The notes under the pieces were generated by a model. It did not search any database, had not been told where the DNA came from, and saw only the letters and a program-made list of their open reading frames with translations. From IMG/VR virus record IMGVR_UViG_2526164646_000006: DNA of 23,456 nucleotides. One strand, given 5' to 3'. A program made the position numbers and the translations under genes. Source of the stretch: a virus (lineage: Duplodnaviria; Heunggongvirae; Uroviricota; Caudoviricetes). Within the stretch, counting starts at the first letter, position 1. Each line of letters begins with the position of its first letter. Shown in pieces: positions 1-17,011 of this stretch.

Positions 1-206
1 CGATAACCATACGTGGGCAGCTCTCCGATAACATGGTGTATACGGAGAAGCACATCCGTATCATCAGTGTGACGACTGCGGCGGCCATCCATCCAGTCAT
101 CGGTTCGTCTGAGAATGACGTGCAACTGCGCACGCGACACCCGGAGACAACGGCTGACTAAGCTTACTCCCCATCCCCGGGCAATAAGGGCGCGTGCGCT
201 ATCCAC
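1..206 (-). CDS. insD: IS2 insD (orfB transposase), 5' portion only, cut by window edge
   Basis: Minus-strand translation from GTG at 206 reads [38 protein letters not shown]..., -1 frame relative to insC. Confidence 0.8.
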
Positions 207-528
207 TTTTTTGCCCGTCCATATTCAACGGCTTCTTTGAGGAGTTCATTTTCCATCGTTTTCTTGCCGAGCAGGCGCTGGAGTTCTTTAATCTGCTTCA
301 TGGCGGCAGCAAGTTCAGAGGCAGGAACAACCTGTTCTCCGGCGGCCACAGCAGTAAGACTTCCTTCCTGGTATTGCTTACGCCAGAGAATAACTGGCTG
401 GCTGCTACACCATGTTGCCGGGCAACGAGGGAGACCGTCATCCCCGGTTCAAAGCTCTGCTGAACAATTGCGATCTTTTCCTGTGTGGTACGCCGTCTGC
501 GTTTCTCCGGCCCTAAGACATCAATCAT
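164..528 (-). pseudogene. insC: IS2 insC (orfA) split across two reading frames by an apparent 1-nt deletion
   Basis: ORF 298-573 carries the InsC N-terminus ([13 protein letters not shown]...ASQLF) and ORF 164-349 the C-terminus (...[12 protein letters not shown]...PGDGE) in a different frame; the junction lies near 381-396. Confidence 0.7.
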
Positions 529-616
529 CTGTTCTCCAATGACTAGTCTAAAAACTAGTATTAAGACTATCACTTAAATAAGTGATACTGGTTGTCTGGA
601 GATTCAGGGGGCCAGT

Positions 617-1946: not shown

Positions 1947-2166
1947 TGTTTGCCTCCTTTGCTCGCTGATTCCACTCTGCTCTAACCTCTGAATAAAAAA
2001 TCGCGCAGTCATTTCCAGGCGCTGCATATTTGCTACCAGATTGAGCGCGACACGTACCGCATCGAACGAAATAGAATCGACCGCCAGAGCCATATTCAGG
2101 GTGATCTGCTTCGCTGGCAACGTGCGCTGCACCGCCACAGAATGGACATGGTAGTAGGTTGCTCAT
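1933..2166 (-). CDS. Lar-family restriction-alleviation-like small zinc-ribbon protein
   Basis: Translation [12 protein letters not shown]...CGTC... with paired Cys motifs; start ATG overlaps upstream stop as ATGA at 2163-2166. Confidence 0.55.
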   Translation of the reverse strand: MSNLLPCPFCGGAAHVASEADHPEYGSGGRFYFVRCGTCRAQSGSKYAAPGNDCAIFYSEVRAEWNQRAKEANSEQD

Positions 2167-2723
2167 GAATGCACTCCCTTGTGAAGCTGTTCCGCACAAT
2201 GCAGCAGGGCGTCAGTCGCCTCTTTCACCGTAACGCAGTCGCCATCGTCCAGCCCGGACACCGACGCGTGCTTAACGAACGCCGCGCAAAGGTCATCAAA
2301 CGCCTTAGCCCGGACTTCAGTCAGGAAAGCATCGGTGGCTGGGGTGTCTGATTGCATAGACTTTGCGCGATAGTCATTCCACCCTCTTGCATACATGGGA
2401 TTAACTTGCACTCCATCTTTTACGCAATATGCCTGCCCTCCACGGTTGATAACCTTGATTTCGTCCATAGCGCCAGACTTCAGCCCCGCATTCTCCGCTG
2501 CCAGTGCCGAAAACTTCTCGTGTGCCAACTTAACAGCCGAATCAGCCTGCTTAATTGACTCAATCGCTTTCTGTTGGTCTTCGGCCAGCGCCAAAATCTT
2601 GGCCTCCGCTTCAGCAAATTTACGCACCAGATATTCAGCGTTTGTTTCGTTAACATTTAAATCTCGTGGGATGCATTTACCTTTCAGAAAACCATCCATC
2701 TCAATTAGTGACATTTGTTTCAT
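2163..2723 (-). CDS. hypothetical protein (186 aa)
   Basis: Open frame starting [11 protein letters not shown]...; ATG overlaps upstream stop (ATGA at 2720-2723). Confidence 0.6.
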
Positions 2724-2902
2724 TTCTTCCCACTCCGCCACATCGCATTCAGATATTTGTTTTGATTCACTGATGGAAACGAGTTTCGCTTAAGCAATTC
2801 CTCTCTCGATGGCATTGGCTTTACGCGTTGGCGAATAATCATTTCTGCCGGAAGAATGCCGGGATTGTATGCAAGTCCTCTCATGGTAAATTCCTCAGTC
2901 AT
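2720..2902 (-). CDS. small hypothetical protein (60 aa)
   Basis: ATG at 2902 overlapping end of upstream gene; no clear RBS; likely translationally coupled. Confidence 0.35.
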
Positions 2903-3191
2903 TACTGATAGCGCCATAGCGTGATCGATAATTACGCAGACGCGGGTCGATATATTCAGGGAAGTGGGTATATGTGGCTTTGCGGAATGGTCGGATTGAT
3001 GTCTGGTAAATTCGCTCGCGTTCTTCTTTCTCTGCAAGCCATATACAGTGGCGAAATTCCTTTTCCTCTTTCGTTTCCTGCGGTAGCGACATTATCCGAT
3101 CGTAGTTTTTTCTGAATTTATCCAGCACCTCCGATACGGAATTGCCGGAACAGCGGCGCGGGTCATCCGCACCATACAGAGGCGCTGGCAT
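2895..3191 (-). CDS. hypothetical protein (98 aa)
   Basis: ATG at 3191 with AGGAG RBS 6 nt upstream. Confidence 0.55.
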
Positions 3192-3207
3192 GTTTTTCTC
3201 CTGTTGA

Positions 3208-3756
3208 TTATTTAGCTAACTTTTTCCAGATCGCTGAAACGTATTTGGCTTGGTGAATGGCATCATCAAGAGCGTTGTGGCGAGTTCCTTTGAATGGCAT
3301 ATCTCGCTTAGGGTCGAATCCTATTGCCTTCCCAAGTTCGACGATTGTTCTTACGTCGCGGTCATTCCACCACTGCCACGGAACTGGCTGCCCTGTCAGC
3401 GAATAACTGTTGCGGAGAATAACGCAGTCAAATGATGCTCCATTCCCCCAAACCTGAACGAATTTGTGGTTAGCGTTCTTTATGATGAATTCAGATAACC
3501 ATGAAAGAGCCGTTGAAAGCTCCTGAGTGTTGCTGGTTAGCGATTTCCTGGCTTCTTCACTCTGTTCCAGCCACCATAAAATCGTTGAAGCGTCAGGACG
3601 CGCTCGATATCGCATTGATGATTCAAGCGAGATATTTACCGAGAACTCTTCTCCTGTTTCTCCGGTATTCGGGTCAAAGAATACCGCCCCAATAGAAATA
3701 ACTGGCGCGTATGGCCCGTTGCCCATTGTTTCAAGGTCAACCATCAAGTGATTCAT
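3208..3756 (-). CDS. DnaQ-like DEDDh 3'-5' exonuclease
   Basis: Motifs DLETMG, FD and HNALDDA in the translation; sits beside SSB and the annealase. Confidence 0.75.
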   Translation of the reverse strand: MNHLMVDLETMGNGPYAPVISIGAVFFDPNTGETGEEFSVNISLESSMRYRARPDASTILWWLEQSEEARKSLTSNTQELSTALSWLSEFIIKNANHKFVQVWGNGASFDCVILRNSYSLTGQPVPWQWWNDRDVRTIVELGKAIGFDPKRDMPFKGTRHNALDDAIHQAKYVSAIWKKLAK

Positions 3757-3764
3757 GTAAGTCC

Positions 3765-4280
3765 TTAAATTGCGTGAATAGCGTGACGAGGGAAGGGGAG
3801 AGTTACTGGTGCAAAGGGGATATCGTCGTCAAAATCCATAGGTGGTTCGCTGTGATTTCCCTGCTGCTGAGGTTGCTGTCTTTGTTGCTGACCATTATTT
3901 CGCTGAGGTGAAGACTGTTCATTGCCTCCTTGCTTGCCACCAAGCATTTGCATGGTTCCACCAACGCCCACGATGACTTCGGTAGTGAACCGATCCTGTC
4001 CGCTTTGATCCTGCCATTTTCTTGTCCGCAATTTGCCTTCAAGATAAACCTCAGAGCCTTTTCGCAGATATTCGCTGGCAATTTCTGCCAGTTTCCCGCT
4101 CATTACCACGCGGTGCCACTCCGTCTGCTCCTTTTGCTCTCCAGTTTTCTTATCACGCCATTGTTCTGACGTAGCAACGGTAAGGTTTGCAAATGCCGTT
4201 CCTGATGGTGAATATCTGATTTCTGGATCATGCCCAAGGCGACCAATAATGATCACCTTATTTACGCCTCTGCTTGCCAT
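3765..4280 (-). CDS. ssb: single-stranded DNA-binding protein with 15-residue extension after the DDDIPF tail
   Basis: OB-fold SSB N-terminus, Gly/Gln-rich linker, [10 protein letters not shown] followed by [15 protein letters not shown] before the TAA at 3765-3767. Confidence 0.9.
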
Positions 4281-4988
4281 TTATGCCGCCTGTTTTAGTT
4301 CGTTAACTCTGATGTTCATTACCTGAACGCATTTAGCCTGCGCCTCCTCGTTGCCAGCCATTAATTGCCAGTCACGCTGATAACGCTCGATGAGTTTTTT
4401 CTTGTCAGTTTCTGTTGACGCATAATCGCTGAAGTCTTTCAGGATTTGTTCGCAGTCAACCGATGGAGATTTCTGGTTGGTATTTTCTGGTGATGGTTTG
4501 TTATCTGATGCTGGGATTGCCCATCCCGGCAGCGATGGAGGGAGCCAGTAAAATCCTGTTCCATCCTTGAGTTTTGCCCTGTGCCATCCCTGCTTTTTAT
4601 CGAGAGATGTTTGTGCAAAACCTTCCTCAAGGTTATACAGATACCGACCGATCCCCCACTGAACGGCAGCGCGCTTCATTGCACCGGAACGACCACCTTT
4701 GACGGCTTCTACCTGCGTGTTTTCAGCAGCATCCCATTTGGTTACCCATTCGGAATCAATCCTGATTGATATGCCGCATTCAACGCCTCCGTTGTTGGGA
4801 ATATCGCGGTATTCATTGCGCCATCCTGCTTTGCCGCAAACATCGTCCAGGCGTTTCATGATTGCCCGGTTCGTGACATAAGCCAGCACCATAGCCCACA
4901 CTTTGCCATCGCGTGTTTTACCGCTTTGCTGTATTCGCCATTCGATATCTTCAGGGCTGAATGGCTTATCGAATTTATTCAAATCCAT
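4281..4988 (-). CDS. Rad52/22-family single-strand annealing recombinase
   Basis: 235 aa; central region resembles Rad52-type annealases; GAGGTGA RBS; stop abuts ssb start. Confidence 0.65.
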   Translation of the reverse strand: MDLNKFDKPFSPEDIEWRIQQSGKTRDGKVWAMVLAYVTNRAIMKRLDDVCGKAGWRNEYRDIPNNGGVECGISIRIDSEWVTKWDAAENTQVEAVKGGRSGAMKRAAVQWGIGRYLYNLEEGFAQTSLDKKQGWHRAKLKDGTGFYWLPPSLPGWAIPASDNKPSPENTNQKSPSVDCEQILKDFSDYASTETDKKKLIERYQRDWQLMAGNEEAQAKCVQVMNIRVNELKQAA

Positions 4989-5087
4989 AATTCACCTCAG
5001 AATGGACATGGCCCAAGGAAATAACGCTGGTTTAATACTTCGACTCTGGACAAATTAAGGCATACCCGCATTCCTTCGCGGTCACCA

Positions 5088-5246
5088 TTATGGCGATACC
5101 AGAGAGCTTTCTGCGTGTACATGCGTCTCTGTAACTTGCTCTCCTTCACTGTGGTTGCAAGTGACATGAATATCTCCTTCGTTACCGATTAATTCTTTCA
5201 TATGACGAATGAATTCTTCGTCTGACCAGTTATCTGTAAAACTCAT
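5088..5246 (-). CDS. small hypothetical protein (52 aa)
   Basis: ATG at 5246 overlaps the Kil-like stop (ATGA). Confidence 0.3.
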   Translation of the reverse strand: MSFTDNWSDEEFIRHMKELIGNEGDIHVTCNHSEGEQVTETHVHAESSLVSP

Positions 5247-5395
5247 TTCCTGCGACACCACGGAAGGTTGATAGCTGATTTCATCGCTTTATTTGCTTCA
5301 AGCCACATTTTTGAATCACCAATAAATCTGGCTATTACTGCTTTGTTCTGTGCAGCACGAAGCATCTGATGATTTATGGCTATTTCATTGCGCAT
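5243..5395 (-). CDS. kil: Kil-like small protein (50 aa)
   Basis: Translation MRNEIAINHQMLRAAQNKAVIARFIGDSKMW... with position immediately downstream of cIII. Confidence 0.45.
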   Translation of the reverse strand: MRNEIAINHQMLRAAQNKAVIARFIGDSKMWLEANKAMKSAINLPWCRRK

Positions 5396-5511
5396 AATAA
5401 GACCTCAACTCTTTTCCATCCGTCACGTAATTTACGGGTGATTCGTTCAAGTAAAGATTCATTTAGTTGGAAGGCACCCATGCGAGCGCCTCCCGCGATT
5501 GCGTAAATCAT
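5380..5511 (-). CDS. cIII: CIII-like small protein (43 aa)
   Basis: Contains ESLLERITRKLRDGWKR, matching the lambda CIII core as recalled; AAGGAA RBS. Confidence 0.7.
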   Translation of the reverse strand: MIYAIAGGARMGAFQLNESLLERITRKLRDGWKRVEVLLCAMK

Positions 5512-5535
5512 GGGTGGTTCCTTATGTTGGTTTTA

Positions 5536-6504
5536 TTAGTAGGTTATTTTTGTTGCGAATACTTCGCCTTTTACGATGGCTGTTATGATATTTTTAGCAA
5601 CATCTTCTGATGCACCAACCTTGATAAGGTCAGCAAGTATTTTGTTATTTACTTCTTTCCGGTGAGCTTTATCCTTTGCTCTACGCTCTTCTTCTTCCTT
5701 GATTCTTTTTTCTTCTGCTATTCTGGCTTGCTCTTTTGCTTCAGCATCGCGACGGATTCGTTCAGCCTCCTCCTGTGCTTTTCTGCGTTCTGCTTCAATT
5801 GCTGCCTGCTTTTCTCTTTCAGCTCGTTCTGCTGCCTCTTTTGCTTCGCGCTGTGCTCGCTGCTCGGCTTCAATGCGTTCACGCTCTGCACGTTCCGCTG
5901 CGGCCTTAGCTTCTGCTTCTCGCCTTGCTGCTGCTTCAATTTCGGCTTTTGCCTTTGCTTCGGCTTCTGCTCTGGCTTTCTCTTCAGCTTCTCTTTTTAA
6001 GCGTTCTTCATGCTCTCGCTTTTCCTGCTCCGCTTTGAGTCTTGCCTCTTCTCTTTGGCGGTCAAATTCGCGATCCATCAAAATAGCTATTTCATGGTCA
6101 GACTCAATTTGCTTTGCGAGAGCTTCAGCTGCTGCCTTAGCTTCTTCTTCGGCTTTAATCCGCGCCTGTTCTTCCTCATAATCAGTAAGAGGCTGGCGCG
6201 CCTTGGCTTTCAGTTCATCAAGGCGATCGCGCACTGTCTTGCGGTTAGCATCAATTAGCTTTGGAATTTCCTTCAGTTCAGCAACAAGGTCTTTGCCAAG
6301 ACCATCGAGATATGTTTTCGTCTGCGCAACTTTATACGCCAGAGAAGCGATCTCCTTTCTGCCCTTTGCCGTTGTGATATCAGGCACAAAGGACATAACT
6401 TCACGTTCAACCTTTTGAAGGATTTCTTCAATCTGGTCGGCAGACTGAAATACAGTCATTGCATTTGCTTTTTCAATAACAACTAAATCTGTTACTTCAC
6501 TCAT
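5536..6504 (-). CDS. charged coiled-coil protein with E/A/K/R-rich low-complexity core (322 aa)
   Basis: ATG at 6504 with GGAGGA RBS; long AEAKAKAE/ERAERE repetitive segment. Confidence 0.6.
   Translation of the reverse strand: MSEVTDLVVIEKANAMTVFQSADQIEEILQKVEREVMSFVPDITTAKGRKEIASLAYKVAQTKTYLDGLGKDLVAELKEIPKLIDANRKTVRDRLDELKAKARQPLTDYEEEQARIKAEEEAKAAAEALAKQIESDHEIAILMDREFDRQREEARLKAEQEKREHEERLKREAEEKARAEAEAKAKAEIEAAARREAEAKAAAERAERERIEAEQRAQREAKEAAERAEREKQAAIEAERRKAQEEAERIRRDAEAKEQARIAEEKRIKEEEERRAKDKAHRKEVNNKILADLIKVGASEDVAKNIITAIVKGEVFATKITY
5607..6117 (-). repeat. imperfect short tandem repeats encoding the E/A/K/R-rich segment
   Basis: Recurrent gcttctgc/ttcggcttc-type units on the plus strand; produces low-complexity shadow ORFs in other frames. 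Confidence 0.5.
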
Positions 6505-6514
6505 ATATCCTCCG

Positions 6515-6545
6515 TCAAAAAAATTGCCCTCACACTGGAGGGCAA
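6515..6545 (-). terminator. intrinsic terminator just upstream of the coiled-coil gene
   Basis: Minus-strand 8-bp stem (6524-6531 / 6538-6545) with 6-nt loop followed by a U-run (plus-strand A-run 6515-6523). Confidence 0.5.
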
Positions 6546-6679
6546 AGAAGATTTCCAATAATCAGAACAAGTCGGCTCCTGTTTAGTTACGAGCGACATT
6601 GCTCCGTGTATTCACTCGTTGGAATGAATACACAGTGCAGTGTTTATTCTGTTGTTTATGCCAAAAATAAAGGCCACCG

Positions 6680-6880
6680 TCAGGCAGCCTTGTTGTTCAG
6701 TTTACCAAGTTCTCTGGCAATCATTGCCGTCGTTCGTATTGCCCATTTATCGACATATTTCCCATCTTCCATTACAGGAAACATTTCTTCAGGCTTAACC
6801 ATGCATTCCGATTGCAGCTTGCATCCATTGCATCGCTTGAATTGTCCACACCATTGATTTTTATCAATGGTCGTAGTCAT
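6680..6880 (-). CDS. ral: Ral restriction-alleviation protein
   Basis: 66-aa translation MTTTIDKNQWCGQFKRCNGCKLQSECMVKPEEMFPVMEDGKYVDKWAIRTTAMIARELGK matches lambda Ral as recalled. Confidence 0.9.
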   Translation of the reverse strand: MTTTIDKNQWCGQFKRCNGCKLQSECMVKPEEMFPVMEDGKYVDKWAIRTTAMIARELGKLNNKAA

Positions 6881-6950
6881 ACGGATAGTCCTGGTATTGT
6901 TCCATCACATCCTGAGGATGCTCTTCGAACTCTTCAAATTCTTCTTCCAT
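6864..6950 (-). CDS. small acidic ORF (28 aa) between N and ral
   Basis: MEEEFEEFEEHPQDVMEQYQDYPYDYDH; stop overlaps ral start. Confidence 0.4.
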   Translation of the reverse strand: MEEEFEEFEEHPQDVMEQYQDYPYDYDH

Positions 6951-6958
6951 ATATCACC

Positions 6959-7285
6959 TCAAATAAGTGGTTTGCTGCCTAATTTCATTTTCTGGCGACC
7001 AACACAAGTCACACCCATTTCACTGCGTGGCTTGCTGTACCATGTGCGCTGATTCTTGCGCTCAATACGCTGCAGGTTGCTTTCAATCTGTTCGTGGTAT
7101 TCAGCCAGCACCGTAAGGTCTATCGGATTCAGTGCGCTTTCTACTCGTGATTTCGGTTTGCGATTCAGCGAGAGAATAGGGCGGTTAACTGGTTTTGCGC
7201 TTACCCCAACCAACAGGGGATTTGCTGCTTTCCATTGAGCCTGTTTCTCTGCGCGACGTTCGCGGCGGCGTGTTTGAGAGTCCAT
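6959..7285 (-). CDS. N: N transcription antitermination protein
   Basis: 108 aa; MDSQTRRRERRAEKQAQWKAANPLL... arginine-rich motif and near identity to lambda N as recalled; GAGGA RBS. Confidence 0.95.
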   Translation of the reverse strand: MDSQTRRRERRAEKQAQWKAANPLLVGVSAKPVNRPILSLNRKPKSRVESALNPIDLTVLAEYHEQIESNLQRIERKNQRTWYSKPRSEMGVTCVGRQKMKLGSKPLI

Positions 7286-7326
7286 ATATCATCCTCAGAT
7301 AAATGGCCCCTCAGCGGGGCCGACAG

Positions 7327-7455
7327 TTATTGGCAGGTTGCGTACTTGCTGATGCAGGAGAAGATTTCCACGATTCGCGTCATTGTTGTTTCAGGACGCT
7401 TTGCTTCATCACGCATTGACTTCAACCAAGCCATAAAGTGTTCGTTATGTTTCAT
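7327..7455 (-). CDS. small ORF (42-44 aa) in the N leader
   Basis: ATG at 7455 six nt after AGGAG (second ATG at 7461); ends 40 nt before N. Confidence 0.3.
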   Translation of the reverse strand: MKHNEHFMAWLKSMRDEAKRPETTMTRIVEIFSCISKYATCQ

Positions 7456-7473
7456 GTTCATCTCCTGTCAGTT

Positions 7474-7703
7474 AGCTTTGGTGGTGTGGTGGCTGGTAGT
7501 CTAGCTCCAGCTTGTTGAGTCTCATTCGGAGGGGTATAACCGGCACCCCAGCGATTTTTCCATGCGACAACGTGCGCGTTATGGCGGCCTTATCGCCCGC
7601 GGCTCCCCATCTCGTCCACGCTATTGCTAGCGTTGGGAGCGCTTCACCGCTCAACAGTAGGTAAGCACTTGCCAGTGACTAGCTGGCTTCACCACACCCC
7701 AAA
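7474..7703 (-). promoter_or_regulatory. N-leader long-range inverted repeat, candidate RNase III-type regulatory stem
   Basis: About 30-nt imperfect inverted repeats at 7474-7510 and 7668-7703 enclosing a GC-rich segment with local hairpins. Confidence 0.45.
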
Positions 7704-7722
7704 GCCTTCTGCTTTGAATGCT

Positions 7723-7752
7723 GCCCTTCTTCAGGGCTTAATTTTTAAGAGC
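7723..7752 (-). promoter_or_regulatory. nutL (boxA + boxB)
   Basis: Minus strand reads GCTCTTAAAAATTAA then GCCCTGAAGAAGGGC. Confidence 0.85.
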
Positions 7753-7797
7753 CTCACCTTCATGGTGGTCAGTGCGTCCTGCTGATGGCTTAAAATT

Positions 7798-7865
7798 ACA
7801 AGAAAGATTGTATGTTGTAAACAAGAAATATTGTAAAAAGGGGCGTGAAAAACAAACTCCATTGT
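7798..7865. promoter_or_regulatory. OL operator cluster / pL region (434-type ACAA-N6-TTGT sites)
   Basis: ACAAGAAAGATTGT 7798-7811, ACAAGAAATATTGT 7821-7834, ACAAACTCCATTGT 7852-7865. Confidence 0.65.
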
Positions 7866-7914
7866 TTTTAAATGAAAAATAGTTTGTTTTTGGTTATCGA
7901 GATTGAGGTGGGGA

Positions 7915-9267
<1,353 letters not shown>

Positions 9268-9275
9268 GACATTCC

Positions 9276-9307
9276 CGCTCTTACACATCCCAGCCCTGAA
9301 AAAGGGC
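9276..9307 (+). promoter_or_regulatory. nutR (boxA + boxB)
   Basis: CGCTCTTACA at 9276-9285 and GCCCTGAAAAAGGGC at 9293-9307. Confidence 0.8.
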
Positions 9308-9383
9308 ATTACCAGAAACAAATCTCTATGGTTTTGCGTTTCTTTGCGAAGCCAACTCTATCTAATCATTAAGGAAATTATCT

Positions 9384-9665
9384 ATGGGTACTATTGCAAC
9401 TAAAAGCAAGAAAGCGGCTCGCATCGAGTCAGCCTTGCTGAACAAACTGGCACTGATGGGGCAGAAGACATTCGCTCGAGCAATGGGGGTTCCTGAATAT
9501 CAGGTAAGCCGATGGAAGAATGGTTTCTTCTCGCAGGTAAGCATGATGCTTGCTGTTCTGGAATACGGAATCGAAGACGATGAAATGGCTGAATTGACTA
9601 AGCGGCTTGCCGATTACCTGACAAAAGAAAAAGCCCCGAAGAACGGCGAATTCTTCGAGGCCTAA
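9384..9665 (+). CDS. cII: CII transcriptional activator
   Basis: [11 protein letters not shown]...SRWK...[10 protein letters not shown] resembles lambda CII; AAGGA RBS. Confidence 0.9.
9621..9661 (-). terminator. possible oop-type antisense terminator at the cII 3' end
   Basis: Minus-strand 11-bp stem with one mismatch (9633-9643 / 9651-9661) followed by a U-run (plus A-run 9621-9632). Confidence 0.4.
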
Positions 9666-10782: not shown

Positions 10783-12309
10783 ATGACGCCAAGTGAACTT
10801 AGCGACCTGCTTTGGGCGCAGGTTGACAGGGTGGCTCCGCACCTGTTGCCAAACGGCAAGAAAGAGGGGCATGAGTGGGTTGCCGGTAACGTCAATGGTG
10901 ACAAGGGAAACAGCCTTAAGGTCAACCTTAGCGGCAAGAAAAAATGGGCTGATTTCGCTGAGGGAGACGGCGGTGACATGCTTGATTTGTGGATGGCATG
11001 TCGTGGAATTAACCTGCATCAGGCTATGCAGGAAGCGAAAGCATTTCTCGGTATCAAGGATGACGATCACCATTTCGATGCCAAACGTGAGAAAAAATTC
11101 TCCAGACCTGATCGCAAGAAAATCGCCCGCTACGTTACCAGAACAGAATCCCATCTTGAGTACCTGCAATCGCGTGGCATATCGCCAGAAGTCGTAAAGC
11201 GCTACGAGGTTGTCAGCGGCAAGGTGTGGAATGGAGAACGAGAACTTGATGCACTGGTGCTTCCGTACAAACGCGATGGTGAGTTGTTGCAGGTCAAGCG
11301 AATCAGCACTGAGCGCCCGGACGGGAAGAAAGTCATTATGGCAGAAGGTGATTGCGAACCTTGTCTGTTCGGATGGCAGGCTCTGGACGCTGGCGTGAGG
11401 GCGGTTGTACTTTGCGAAGGCGAAATTGATTGTATGAGCTATGCGCAATACGGCATCTCGGCGTTATCCGTGCCGTTTGGTGGAGGGAAAGGCGCTAAGC
11501 AACAGTGGATTGAGTTTGAGTACCACAACCTCGACAGGTTTGAGGAAATATTCATCTCGATGGACGTTGATGATGTTGGTCGTGAAGCCGCAAGGGAAAT
11601 CGCAAGCCGACTCGGTGAACATCGTTGCCGTCTTGTTACTCTGCCGTACAAAGACATCAACGAATGCCTGATGAACGGTGTTACCGAGGATGAAATCTGG
11701 CAGTACATCGGCACGGCATCCTACTTTGATCCTGAAGAACTCTACAGCGCGCGAGAGTTTTACCAGGACACTATCAACGCTTTCTACGGCAAGCAGCAGT
11801 ATCTGTTTAATCCACCGTGGGAATCTCTGGCAGATAAATTCCAGTTTCGTGAGGCCGAGTTGACGCTGGTCAATGGTGTGAACGGTCACGGAAAAACGGA
11901 GGTTGTCGGGCATATGGCACTTGAGGCAATGCGTCAGGGTGTGAAGACGTGCATCGCGTCACTTGAGCTGAAGCCTGGTATTCTCCTTAAGCGCCTTACC
12001 CGTCAGGCGACGTGCTGCAAGATGCCGCCAGTGCTGGAAATTGACTCTGCATTTAAATTTTATGACGAAAGACTTTGGGTGTTTGGCCTGACTGGAACGG
12101 CGAAAGCCGACAGGCTGATCGAAATATTCGACTACGCTCGCCGCCGATACGGCATCCAGTTATTCATCATCGACAGCCTGATGAAATGCGGCATAGGTGA
12201 CGATGACTATAACGGGCAGAAAGCATTTGTTGACTCGATTTGTGACTTCAAAAACAAACAAACTCCCACGTCATTCTCGTTACTCACTCCAGAAAAGGAG
12301 ATAGCGAAG
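10783..12309 (+). pseudogene. bifunctional primase-helicase (Toprim + SF4 RecA-fold helicase, T7 gp4-like), 5' portion; frameshifted near 12262-12268 and cut by IS911
   Basis: Toprim motifs CEGEID...DVDD; Walker A GVNGHGKT; Walker B LFIIDSL; downstream motif [11 protein letters not shown] is only readable in the -1 frame. Confidence 0.85.
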
Positions 12310-12350
12310 TGAAGTGGCACACTGAATTTGGCCACCTGAACAGAGGTGAT

Positions 12351-13549
<1,199 letters not shown>

Positions 13550-14530: not shown

Positions 14531-14695
14531 ATGAGCGCATACGAAGAAATCATGTTAGCCCTGCGATTCTTTTTCGGTGTGGAAGAAGATGAAAACGTAA
14601 ATGAGATTATCGGGCAAGACCATGACCCGATAGGGACTATTGCAGCTGCACTTGACGATTACAGGAGCGTAAATGGTGAGGAAACTAACGTTTGA
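14531..14695 (+). CDS. small acidic protein (54 aa)
   Basis: ATG at 14531 with AAGGAG RBS; overlaps ninB start. Confidence 0.4.
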   Translation: MSAYEEIMLALRFFFGVEEDENVNEIIGQDHDPIGTIAAALDDYRSVNGEETNV

Positions 14696-15116
14696 ACTAA
14701 GAAGCCCCATCCATCAGCAGAACGCCATTCAAGCTATCCAGAAAATTCTTCCAGACCCAACCAAACCAATCGTAGTAACCATTCAGGAACGCAACCGCAG
14801 CTTAGACCAAAACAGGAAGCTATGGGCCTGCTTAGGTGACGTCTCTCGTCAGGTTGAATGGCATGGGCGTTGGCTGGATGCAGAAAGCTGGAAGTGTGTG
14901 TTTACCGCAGCATTAAAGCAGCAGGACGTTGTTCCTAACCTTGCCGGGAATGGCTTTGTGGTAATAGGCCAGTCAACCAGCAGGATGCGTGTAAGCGAAT
15001 TTGCGGAGCTATTAGAGCTTATACAGGCATTCGGTACAGAGCGTGGCGTTAAGTGGTCAGACGAAGCGCGACTGGCTCTGGAGTGGAAAGCGCGATGGGG
15101 AGACCGGGCAGCATGA
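14673..15116 (+). CDS. ninB: NinB (Orf-family recombination mediator)
   Basis: Translation ...[65 protein letters not shown]... close to lambda NinB as recalled. Confidence 0.95.
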
Positions 15117-15987: not shown

Positions 15988-16369
15988 CCGATACGGACAA
16001 ATAACGTTTAAACATTTTCAAGACAATCCAACATGGGCTGCTGCGGCTGGATATGACTTTAATTATTTTGATTGTCTGTCAGTCGCATGTATTGCAACTA
16101 CCAATGTTGCTAACAACATAATCGATGAATTCTTGGATTTTCCAGACTATCAGGTCAGAGAGTTGCCTGCATTTTTTGTGAAAGTATCTGTTGCTACAGC
16201 TCTGTTATTTATTTTGTTATTCGCATATCCATTGCTTGCCGTATTTGTTTATGTGAGATGCAAACACTCACAAAAGAAATACAGCGGAGAGCATACCGAT
16301 ATTACCAGCCAAAATATGCGAGTGTGGTTGAGGAGATGCCAAGAGAAATGGGGGAGACGTCATGGCTAA
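15977..16369 (+). CDS. putative membrane protein in an AT-rich segment (130 aa)
   Basis: Hydrophobic segment LPAFFVKVSVATALLFILLFAYPLLAVFVYV; competing overlapping ORF at 16258-16491, so start and extent are uncertain. Confidence 0.35.
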   Translation: MVISRYGQITFKHFQDNPTWAAAAGYDFNYFDCLSVACIATTNVANNIIDEFLDFPDYQVRELPAFFVKVSVATALLFILLFAYPLLAVFVYVRCKHSQKKYSGEHTDITSQNMRVWLRRCQEKWGRRHG

Positions 16370-16652
16370 CCTACGCAAAGAAGCGCGCGGAAGAGAATGC
16401 CAGGTACGTATTTACGGCGTATGCAATGGAAATCCTGAAACTACAGTTCTGGCACATTACCGGATGGCTGGAATTTGCGGAACTGGAATGAAGCCTGACG
16501 ACCTGATCGGGGCATGGGCTTGTAGCGCGTGTCACGATGAAATCGACCGACGCACCCATAATCTCGACAACAAAGACGCCAGACTTTACCACCTCGAAGG
16601 CGTGATCAGGACGCAGGCGATACTGCTGAAGGAGGGAAAGATTAAGCCATGA
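16362..16652 (+). CDS. YbcO-like (DUF1364) putative nuclease
   Basis: MANLRKEARGRECQVRIYGVCNGNPETTVLAHYR...WACSACHDEIDRR; GGGGAGA RBS. Confidence 0.7.
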   Translation: MANLRKEARGRECQVRIYGVCNGNPETTVLAHYRMAGICGTGMKPDDLIGAWACSACHDEIDRRTHNLDNKDARLYHLEGVIRTQAILLKEGKIKP

Positions 16653-17011
16653 ACGAATATCAGTTTGTGCTTCCATACCCGCCGTCGGTGAACACCTACT
16701 GGCGAAGACGGGGAAGCCAATACTACATCAGCGATAAAGGCCAGAAATACCGAAAAGACGTTCAGAAAATCATCCGCCAACTCAAGTTAGACATTTTCAC
16801 CAAATCACGACTCCGCATCAAAGTAATCGCAGACGTTCCAGACTCCCGCCGCCGCGACCTCGATAACATCCTGAAAGGTTTACTCGACTCACTTATCCAC
16901 GCCGGATTTGCGGAAGACGACGAGCAATTCGATGACATTCGCGTAATTCGTGGTGTGAAAGTACCAGGCGGAAGGCTTGGAATAAAAATCACCGAACTGG
17001 AGAACGCATGA
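16649..17011 (+). CDS. rusA: RusA Holliday-junction resolvase
   Basis: LPYPPSVNTYW...DRRRRDLDNILK...IKITELE matches RusA as recalled. Confidence 0.9.
   Translation: MNEYQFVLPYPPSVNTYWRRRGSQYYISDKGQKYRKDVQKIIRQLKLDIFTKSRLRIKVIADVPDSRRRDLDNILKGLLDSLIHAGFAEDDEQFDDIRVIRGVKVPGGRLGIKITELENA

Follow-up and report, generated by a model that had tools for sequence, protein, structure and literature searches.

Gene content and position of the recombination module

We analysed a recombination (Rec) module in a 23,456-nt stretch of DNA from a virus of the Caudoviricetes (IMG/VR virus record IMGVR_UViG_2526164646_000006), called the window in the following. The interval 3208-4988 is exactly filled by three minus-strand open reading frames (ORFs) of 235, 171 and 182 aa. 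An earlier reading of the sequence alone (the sequence-only reading) had assigned these to a Rad52/22-family annealase, a phage single-stranded DNA-binding protein (SSB) and a 3'-5' DnaQ-like exonuclease. As judged from Pfam, a fold search and the catalytic residues, all three assignments hold, the scores lying far above chance. As a three-gene module, however, the description was one gene short, since abc2 adjoins directly downstream. The module and its upstream border comprise the following features:

4281-4988, minus strand: predicted single-strand annealing protein of 235 aa, with an N-domain of Rad52/Sak type fused to a C-domain of P22-Erf type (Pfam, Foldseek)
4581-4979, minus strand: Rad52_Rad22 annealing domain, aa 4-136 of the annealase (Pfam PF04098; strands and helix of the AlphaFold2 model)
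4284-4466, minus strand: C-terminal three-helix domain of the annealase, aa 175-235, presumed to bind a partner (BLASTP against P22 Erf; AlphaFold2)
3765-4280, minus strand: bacterial-type SSB, 171 aa (PF00436; TIGR00621)
3768-3812, minus strand: 15-codon extension of ssb past DFDDDIPF, corresponding to the empty site of an HNH cassette (translations, DNA alignment)
3208-3756, minus strand: predicted DEDDh (DnaQ-like) 3'-5' exonuclease, 182 aa, Rv2179c/DexA family, optional cassette (PF16473, PDB 8kel)
2895-3191, minus strand: Abc2, predicted anti-RecBCD or RecBCD-hijacking protein, 98 aa, fourth gene of the module (PF11043; identity to P22 Abc2)
4997-5261, minus strand: two small overlapping ORFs, 4997-5167 (56 aa) and 5088-5261 (57 aa), at the position of P22 arf (phrog_1723, translations)
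5243-5511, minus strand: kil (5243-5395) and a cIII-like ORF (5380-5511), upstream border as in lambda and P22 (PF06301; synteny)

The order is thus kil, small ORFs, annealase, ssb, exonuclease (exo), abc2. The TAA stop codon of the annealase gene directly abuts the ATG of ssb, and only 8 nt separate ssb from exo and 16 nt exo from abc2. Because the genes are nearly contiguous and abc2 follows directly, the functional unit comprises at least four genes. The whole module would be read leftward from pL as a single tightly packed unit. A scan of the region 2000-9400 revealed no terminator-like site inside the module, and promoter- and terminator-like sites were no commoner in this region than in shuffled sequence. 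An own promoter for exo was considered and rejected, as there is one promoter-like match (9/12) inside ssb and the regional count lies below the shuffle expectation.

The module is situated in the leftward early operon, downstream of the cIII-like ORF and kil, where lambda carries gam-bet-exo and P22 carries arf-erf-abc1-abc2. The kil gene was identified by Pfam (PF06301, Lambda_Kil, E=1.7e-20), and the cIII-like ORF is named solely from synteny with the annotated loci of mEp235 and Sf6. Searching the whole 23.4-kb window by tblastn, we found no homologue of lambda Exo, Bet or Gam at E<=1e-3. With the slot shared and these homologues missing, the view that the module stands in place of lambda Red was borne out.

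The two small ORFs between kil and the annealase gene overlap by 80 nt in different frames, and the same arrangement is found in Sf6 (gp29/gp30) and in mEp235. The 56-aa ORF matches phrog_1723, annotated as 'recombinase', with E=9e-36. The downstream one of the two resembles epsilon34 gp37 and has the C-terminus ...PF. The upstream 57-aa ORF was tried as a homologue of P22 Arf and rejected, the match extending merely over 7 residues ('SDEEFI', E=0.014).

The annealase combines a Rad52-type N-domain with an Erf-type C-domain

The N-terminal part of the annealase matched the Pfam family PF04098 (Rad52_Rad22) with E=3.9e-26 and 92.2 bits (cutoff 20.3), aa 4-136 aligning to positions 7-153 of the 153 profile positions. 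No match to the ERF and RecT/Redbeta Pfam models was obtained even at E<=10. At the same threshold the ERF domain PF04404 was not found in the N-terminal ~150 aa; P22 Erf itself scores PF04404 in its N-terminal part with E=4.6e-46. A tblastn search with lambda Bet over the window gave nothing.

An AlphaFold2 model built on 36 homologues (pLDDT 82.7) displays strands at aa 15-24, 30-38, 56-62, 69-77 and 80-85 and a helix at aa 40-51. When this model was submitted to Foldseek, the top 17 PDB matches were all yeast Mgm101 or human RAD52 (E 3.6e-4 to 2e-2, probability 0.91-1.00), and neither RecT nor Redbeta was among these 17. The TM-scores are low (0.22-0.45) because the whole annealase chain was used. 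RAD52 was missed when PDB chains were searched with the annealase sequence, either alone or as a profile of 36 sequences; these searches gave only a sub-threshold, WW-domain-like match at aa ~131-162 (E~0.09-0.1). The link to Rad52 is therefore based on Pfam and on the fold search.

The C-terminal part of the protein has a different affiliation. BLASTP against P22 Erf aligned aa 157-235 only, with 63% identity over 79 aa (E=2e-30). Three helices are modelled in this part (aa 179-192, 196-209 and 214-234, pLDDT ~90), and the domain modelled alone reached a pLDDT of 88. A structure search with the C-domain returned generic three-helix-bundle matches only (best E=1.2) and no link to the C-terminal domain of Redbeta or to a known partner-binding domain. 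As judged from these sequence comparisons, the annealase is a chimera whose N-domain is of Rad52 type and whose C-terminal domain is that of P22 Erf. The sequence-only reading had stated that placement in the RecT or Erf families would speak against it, and the outcome is mixed: the annealing domain is of Rad52 type without a RecT or ERF match, but the C-terminal ~60-79 aa are of P22-Erf type. The C-terminal domain also explains why such proteins are labelled 'Erf-like' in PHROGs and GenBank.

The Erf-type C-domain is thus found on two unrelated annealing domains, in both cases upstream of abc2. Since P22 possesses neither a phage SSB nor a phage exonuclease and yet has the Erf C-domain and Abc2, by analogy the partner of this domain is more likely to be Abc2-RecBCD or a host factor such as the host SSB.

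Between the Rad52 domain and a disordered linker, aa 131-160 (4509-4598; GWHRAKLKDGTGFYWLPPSLPGWAIPA) gave a sub-threshold match to a WW domain (Prp40, E~0.09-0.13). Short beta-strands are modelled here with high AlphaFold2 confidence, and the stretch may belong to the Rad52 fold or form a small module of its own.

Identity of the exonuclease

The exonuclease matched PF16473 (Rv2179c-like 3'-5' exonuclease) over the full profile with E=6.9e-74. It also matched PDB 8kel, a 227-aa chain named 'Exodeoxyribonuclease', with E=1.5e-13, and it shares 29% identity with a T4-type DexA from phage Aplg8, whose length equals that of the 8kel chain (227 aa). The residues D7, E9, D110, H160 and D165, which constitute the DEDDh signature, are invariant when the protein is aligned with five homologues from phages (29-60% identity). 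The protein is predicted to be a DEDDh (DnaQ-like) enzyme, with the 3'-5' polarity taken from family membership.

The Pfam family that fits best takes its name from a 3'-5' exoribonuclease, and databases label the protein itself '3'-5' exoribonuclease'. It could accordingly be imagined that the enzyme, like the founding member Rv2179c, trims RNA 3' ends at R-loops or primers and is unrelated to annealing. We consider this the least probable of the roles discussed here: the sole match among solved structures is the exodeoxyribonuclease chain, DexA, the T4-type homologue in the alignment, acts on DNA as an exonuclease (PMC12153337), and the gene has a DNA-recombination context with no RNA-related neighbours seen.

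The exonuclease gene is an optional cassette

The distribution of the gene was assessed in IMG/VR loci classified by tblastn. The loci were anchored either on the annealase (>=99% identical, n=79) or on the exonuclease (>=90% identical, n=80). Among the annealase-anchored loci 41 contain no nuclease gene, 19 HNH only, 17 exo only, and 2 both HNH and exo, so that exo is missing from 60/79 loci with an annealase at least 99% identical to that of the window. It is also absent from the characterised phages Sf6, HK75 and P22. A DNA alignment of the window, mEp235, Bas106 and Sf6 resolves two independent single-gene cassettes between ssb and abc2, namely HNH and exo. Their edges are clean and coincide with stop codons and ribosome-binding sites; exo lies between the stop codon of ssb or HNH and the ribosome-binding site of abc2. 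The exonuclease gene is an optional one-gene cassette that is dispensable for the existence of the module.

Where exo is present, its surroundings are constant. In the exo-anchored loci abc2 follows downstream in 80/80, and the annealase with Rad52-type N-domain and Erf-type C-domain lies upstream together with ssb in 73/80, which are all those whose sequence extends far enough upstream. More distantly related exonucleases (57-62% identity) are found in other prophages beside xis/int together with DndB, DUF2303 and YfdP genes. Others lie beside a Gp2.5-like annealase and a DNA polymerase, another adjoins a helicase with a primase further downstream, and in T4-like phages the family member is dexA. 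The varied settings of the relatives indicate that exonucleases of this family serve phage DNA metabolism in general and are not tied to Rad52-type annealases as dedicated partners.

One of these settings recurs. In the loci L175-L180 from Salmonella and Klebsiella prophages (~60% identity) the gene order is YfdP, DUF2303, (ParB-like), DndB-like, exonuclease and excisionase/integrase. No recognisable annealase is adjacent in this block, which represents a second recurrent setting of the exonuclease family.

Two cassettes side by side could also mean that the two products cooperate. DexA contributes to intron homing initiated by I-TevI in T4 (PMC12153337), and in the same manner the exonuclease might help the HNH endonuclease by widening the double-strand gap and the co-conversion tracts. 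The two slots are adjacent, and both are occupied in Bas106 and in ~16 IMG/VR loci. Yet most loci with exo, including the window, lack HNH (74 without, 16 with), and most HNH loci lack exo (19 versus 2 among the annealase-anchored loci), which makes this role highly improbable.

That exo behaves as a mobile single-gene cassette would likewise suit an anti-phage weapon of the HREX type, which degrades the 5-hydroxymethylcytosine (5hmC) DNA of rival T-even phages and is a mere passenger of the early operon. EcD, a DexA homologue of E. coli, breaks down T4 DNA and shields the cells from this phage (PMC12153337). In the alignment, W130 of the window protein aligns with DexA W152, which together with D169 has been proposed to recognise 5hmC, and DexA D90, a residue tied to tetramer formation (PMC12153337), falls in a gap, leaving no Asp there. 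At the position of DexA D169, however, the window protein has Ala144. EcD is moreover a different protein: its termini as derived from the primers are MIDTET... and ...TIPETY, the 120 closest clusters (all at least 57% identical) do not include it, and none of these starts with MIDTET or ends with TIPETY. A search with the 20-nt reverse primer of EcD (HAK9828821.1) gave one chance match in viral contigs and one in genome contigs. PADLOC assigned no defence system, the exonuclease giving just a generic DEDDh match with E=2e-4. Finally, exo lies in the repressor-controlled pL operon without an own promoter above chance and should therefore be silent in the lysogen. Taken together we regard a defence role as unlikely.

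Abc2 and the proposed mechanism

The fourth gene of the module, abc2, matched PF11043 with E=4.3e-62, and its product is 93% identical to Abc2 of P22. It keeps Pro68, the residue associated with PpiB binding. P22 Abc2 binds RecC at the Chi-recognition domains; in the resulting Abc2-RecBCD complex the response to Chi is lost and cutting of the 5' strand is up-regulated (PMC9836394). According to the model for P22, Abc2-RecBCD provides single strands and loads the phage annealase in place of RecA. Phages encoding Abc2 are apparently without an exonuclease because the co-opted RecBCD would provide one (PMC9836394).

Neither the Erf N-domain nor Abc1 was found in the window, and no YqaJ-type or other recognisable 5'-3' exonuclease was seen among the window ORFs scanned. 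We considered two alternatives for the enzyme that takes over the task of lambda Exo. First, the DEDDh exonuclease itself could digest the 3' strands of duplex ends, exposing 5' tails for the Rad52-type annealase in a mirror image of the lambda pathway; the sequence-only reading had opposed the polarity of the enzyme to that of the lambda exonuclease. The gene is located within the module beside ssb and the annealase, its close homologues are always so placed, and the missing 5'-3' exonuclease would fit as well. But as stated above, 60/79 near-identical modules do without exo, 41 of them without any nuclease; abc2 is always present and offers RecBCD as resection enzyme; and the relatives of 57-62% identity lie beside xis/int with no annealase nearby. 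Resection by the DEDDh enzyme is therefore very unlikely, and the proposed counterpart of lambda Exo with reversed polarity finds no support, the gene being optional and RecBCD being available through Abc2.

Second, RecBCD under the control of Abc2 could do the work. Because of the 93% identity of Abc2, the lack of a 5'-3' exonuclease and the many nuclease-free modules, lambda Exo's job is most likely filled by RecBCD-Abc2 and not by the DEDDh enzyme. We thus take the locus for the Rec module of a lambdoid prophage, P22-like and of Sf6/Sf101 type, with E. coli or Shigella as host. It would act as follows, and we assign this overall mechanism a probability of about 0.6. Abc2 would bind host RecC, block the response to Chi and make RecBCD unwind and resect the phage ends, as its identity to P22 Abc2 suggests. 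The phage SSB would then coat the exposed single strands. The Rad52-type annealase, probably recruited via its Erf-type C-domain, would anneal complementary strands, and by comparison with the biology of P22 Erf the outcome would be a circularised terminally redundant headful genome, concatemers or recombinants. The DEDDh exonuclease would not make the recombinogenic strand; as an optional accessory it would most likely trim single strands from their 3' end. Its targets could be the non-homologous 3' tails or flaps of annealed intermediates, or 3' overhangs barring the entry of RecBCD. The exact role of the exonuclease is the least certain step, and we place it well below 0.6.

The need for such a pathway can be seen from the packaging genes. 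The small terminase of P22 gp3 type and the large terminase in the window indicate headful packaging and terminal redundancy and hence a need for recombinational circularisation. In P22 the terminally redundant ends must recombine for the genome to circularise. No Chi site (GCTGGTGG) is present on either strand of the 23.4-kb window, which is weak evidence since the base composition predicts only ~0.7 sites. Chi avoidance has been reported for Abc2 phages, and the absence of Chi from the window agrees with this (PMC3784561).

Several points weigh against the proposed mechanism. The loading of Erf by RecBCD-Abc2 in P22 is itself still a hypothesis (PMC9836394). The constant context of exo in 80/80 loci argues for some functional tie to recombination, and the DnaQ-like nuclease of epsilon34 has been judged 'very likely' to be a legitimate member of the Rec module (PMC12315714). 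Since 3'-5' exonucleases acting on single-stranded DNA usually lower recombination (PMC12315714), a positive trimming role is a conjecture. Furthermore, locus counts such as the 60/79 are descriptive only, because the loci are near-identical, some contigs occur in both sets and the events are not independent.

The C-terminal tip of the phage SSB and the HNH cassette

The SSB is of bacterial type, with E=3.7e-38 for PF00436 and E=4e-54 for TIGR00621 (183 bits, cutoff 54); the latter alignment stops at aa 156. In E. coli SSB the acidic ...DDDIPF forms the extreme C-terminus and is the tip to which partner proteins bind. In the window SSB the motif ...DFDDDIPF is not terminal but is followed by 15 further residues. 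The SSB proteins of Sf6 and Bas106 end at ...DIPF, and the same 14 tail residues form the C-terminus of their HNH endonuclease. The DNA alignment with these two phages locates the HNH cassette directly after the Phe codon of ssb, the empty-site sequence at the junction being GATATCCCCTTT/GCACCAGTAACT, with the slash at the junction. With the cassette come a stop codon, a ribosome-binding site and a start codon, and its reading frame is closed by the former ssb tail. Immediately before the junction, the ssb codons differ between the empty and the occupied alleles (DFDDDIPF versus NFDDSDIPF).

This observation covers the window (3768-3812), the loci L002 (2316-2805) and L003 (2876-3365) and the IMG/VR loci L011-L169. 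In the 153 loci classified, a complete correlation was seen between HNH and the state of the tail: SSB ended with IPF in 35/35 loci with HNH, and 115/118 loci without HNH had the 15-residue tail, the other three being two point variants and one frameshift. The pattern suggests that the HNH gene entered the 3' end of ssb by a homing-type insertion. On this reading the common SSB of the empty site has a capped partner-binding tip.

It is tempting to connect the capped tip with the exonuclease. A buried tip may stop the recruitment of host ExoI, RecQ, RecO and PriA to phage single strands, and the phage's own 3'-5' exonuclease would then allow controlled trimming for the annealing driven by Abc2-RecBCD. 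The capped SSB and the DEDDh exonuclease would in this case form a phage-private system for the handling of 3' ends, with the HNH insertion toggling between a capped and a canonical SSB. This idea, which was not addressed in the published work that we found, is a long shot. As the SSB tip contacts annealases and many repair enzymes, the capped tip is nevertheless a small testable oddity.

Comparison with known recombination modules

The same four genes in the same order are present in the Salmonella phage epsilon34 (genes 33-36: Abc2, nuclease, SSB and 'Erf'), in the coliphages mEp235 and mEpX2 and in many E. coli prophages. The DNA of the module is 86% identical to that of epsilon34 and 92% to that of mEp235, and the differences are allelic only. 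All four genes are also annotated in g341c and Bas106. The genome paper of epsilon34 from 2008 already listed Abc2, a bacterial-type SSB and a nuclease 'unusual in this context', noted that the 'Erf' resembles P22 Erf in the C-terminal 56 aa only, and cited earlier discussions of Erf domain swaps (PMC2629481). The DnaQ-like nucleases of lambdoid Rec modules were catalogued in 2025, with epsilon34 as an example (PMC12315714).

The current RefSeq names are 'Rad52/Rad22 family DNA repair protein', 'ssb', '3'-5' exonuclease' and 'phage anti-RecBCD protein'; the first is also the NCBI name of the identical annealase protein recorded from Shigella flexneri and E. coli. No NCBIfam model was found for the annealase, the exonuclease or Abc2. 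At least 80% of the module is contained in 140/5,426 complete E. coli genomes, and exact matches to the module proteins occur on hundreds of contigs. At the level of the sequence-only reading the module is thus already known, from P22-like prophages of E. coli, Shigella and Salmonella, the gene set, the swap of the Erf C-domain and the DnaQ-like nucleases all being published (PMC2629481, PMC12315714). As a discovery it matters little, as its genes are routinely annotated. It is, on the other hand, a compact candidate for recombineering, in which an annealase and its cognate SSB could be combined with exo and abc2 or used without them, and the natural variants, which differ by single cassettes, represent a ready-made deletion series.

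The Shigella phage Sf6 (genes 25-28) is a close match: gp28 is one residue off the window annealase, the DNA is 98% identical, and ssb and abc2 are the same. It differs in having the HNH endonuclease in place of the exonuclease and an SSB ending with ...DIPF. The coliphage HK75 (genes 30-32) has the same ssb and abc2 and no nuclease.

With arf-erf-abc1-abc2 of P22 the module shares the position in the operon, Abc2 (93%), the C-domain of the annealase (63%) and the headful-packaging phage type. In contrast to P22, the annealing domain is of Rad52/Sak type and not ERF, ssb and exo replace abc1, and there is no clear arf. Lambda Red has in common with the module the slot downstream of cIII and kil and the task, RecA-independent recombination by single-strand annealing, and Bet and the Rad52-type annealases have been placed in one structural superfamily (PMC9870868). 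The difference is that RecBCD would be co-opted via Abc2 rather than blocked by Gam, and that the sole phage nuclease of the module is an optional enzyme, predicted to be a DEDDh 3'-5' exonuclease.

The reference Rad52 homologue of phages is Sak of the lactococcal phage ul36 (PMC2896510). The window annealase belongs to the same Pfam family (PF04098) as ul36 Sak and other Rad52-family annealases and is likened to them by family only; the Erf-type C-domain and the linkage to abc2 set it apart as features of the enterobacterial P22-like group. The exonuclease shares its Pfam family and the conserved DEDDh residues with T4 DexA and EcD. Compared with DexA it is 45 aa shorter, several DexA segments align to gaps, and it is located in the Rec module of a temperate phage.

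Other features of the window

The window corresponds to the early and early-late part of a lambdoid prophage of P22-like type. Among phages it matches Sf101, IME10 and mEp043 best overall, with 96-98% identity over about half of the window. Features outside the pL module include:

8316-8948: S24-type repressor, then cII, replication protein O and a Toprim-domain replication protein
14673-15116, plus strand: NinB/Orf (PF05772)
16362-16652, plus strand: YbcO putative nuclease (PF07102)
16649-17011, plus strand: RusA Holliday-junction resolvase (PF05866)

The rightward order continues with NinB, NinX, YbcO, RusA, the antiterminator Q, holin and Rz, and the window closes with the two terminase genes mentioned above. 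With NinB, YbcO and RusA in the nin region, the recombination toolkit of the phage is fuller than the pL module alone.

At the left edge (164-573, minus strand) two ORFs lie in different frames (164-349 and 298-573) and resemble a frameshifted IS2-type orfA. Among the window ORFs examined we identified neither an integrase nor an excisionase gene, and the prophage may therefore be rearranged or truncated on that side. Further insertion-sequence material was seen at 12309-13549 on the plus strand, where an ORF with an rve integrase core (12710-13549) follows a 124-aa ORF behind the Toprim replication gene.

Two minus-strand ORFs remain to be mentioned. The ORF 7915-8391 is located downstream of the repressor gene and overlaps its end; an internal Met is followed by a hydrophobic stretch resembling a signal peptide. 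It had no Pfam or PADLOC match and may be a moron encoding a secreted protein or lipoprotein expressed in the lysogen. The ORF 5536-6558 (340 aa) had no Pfam match and matched PHROG families of unknown function. The long middle part of the protein is rich in Glu, Ala, Lys and Arg and resembles a coiled coil, and the ORF lies between N and cIII, where Sf6 has gene 33.

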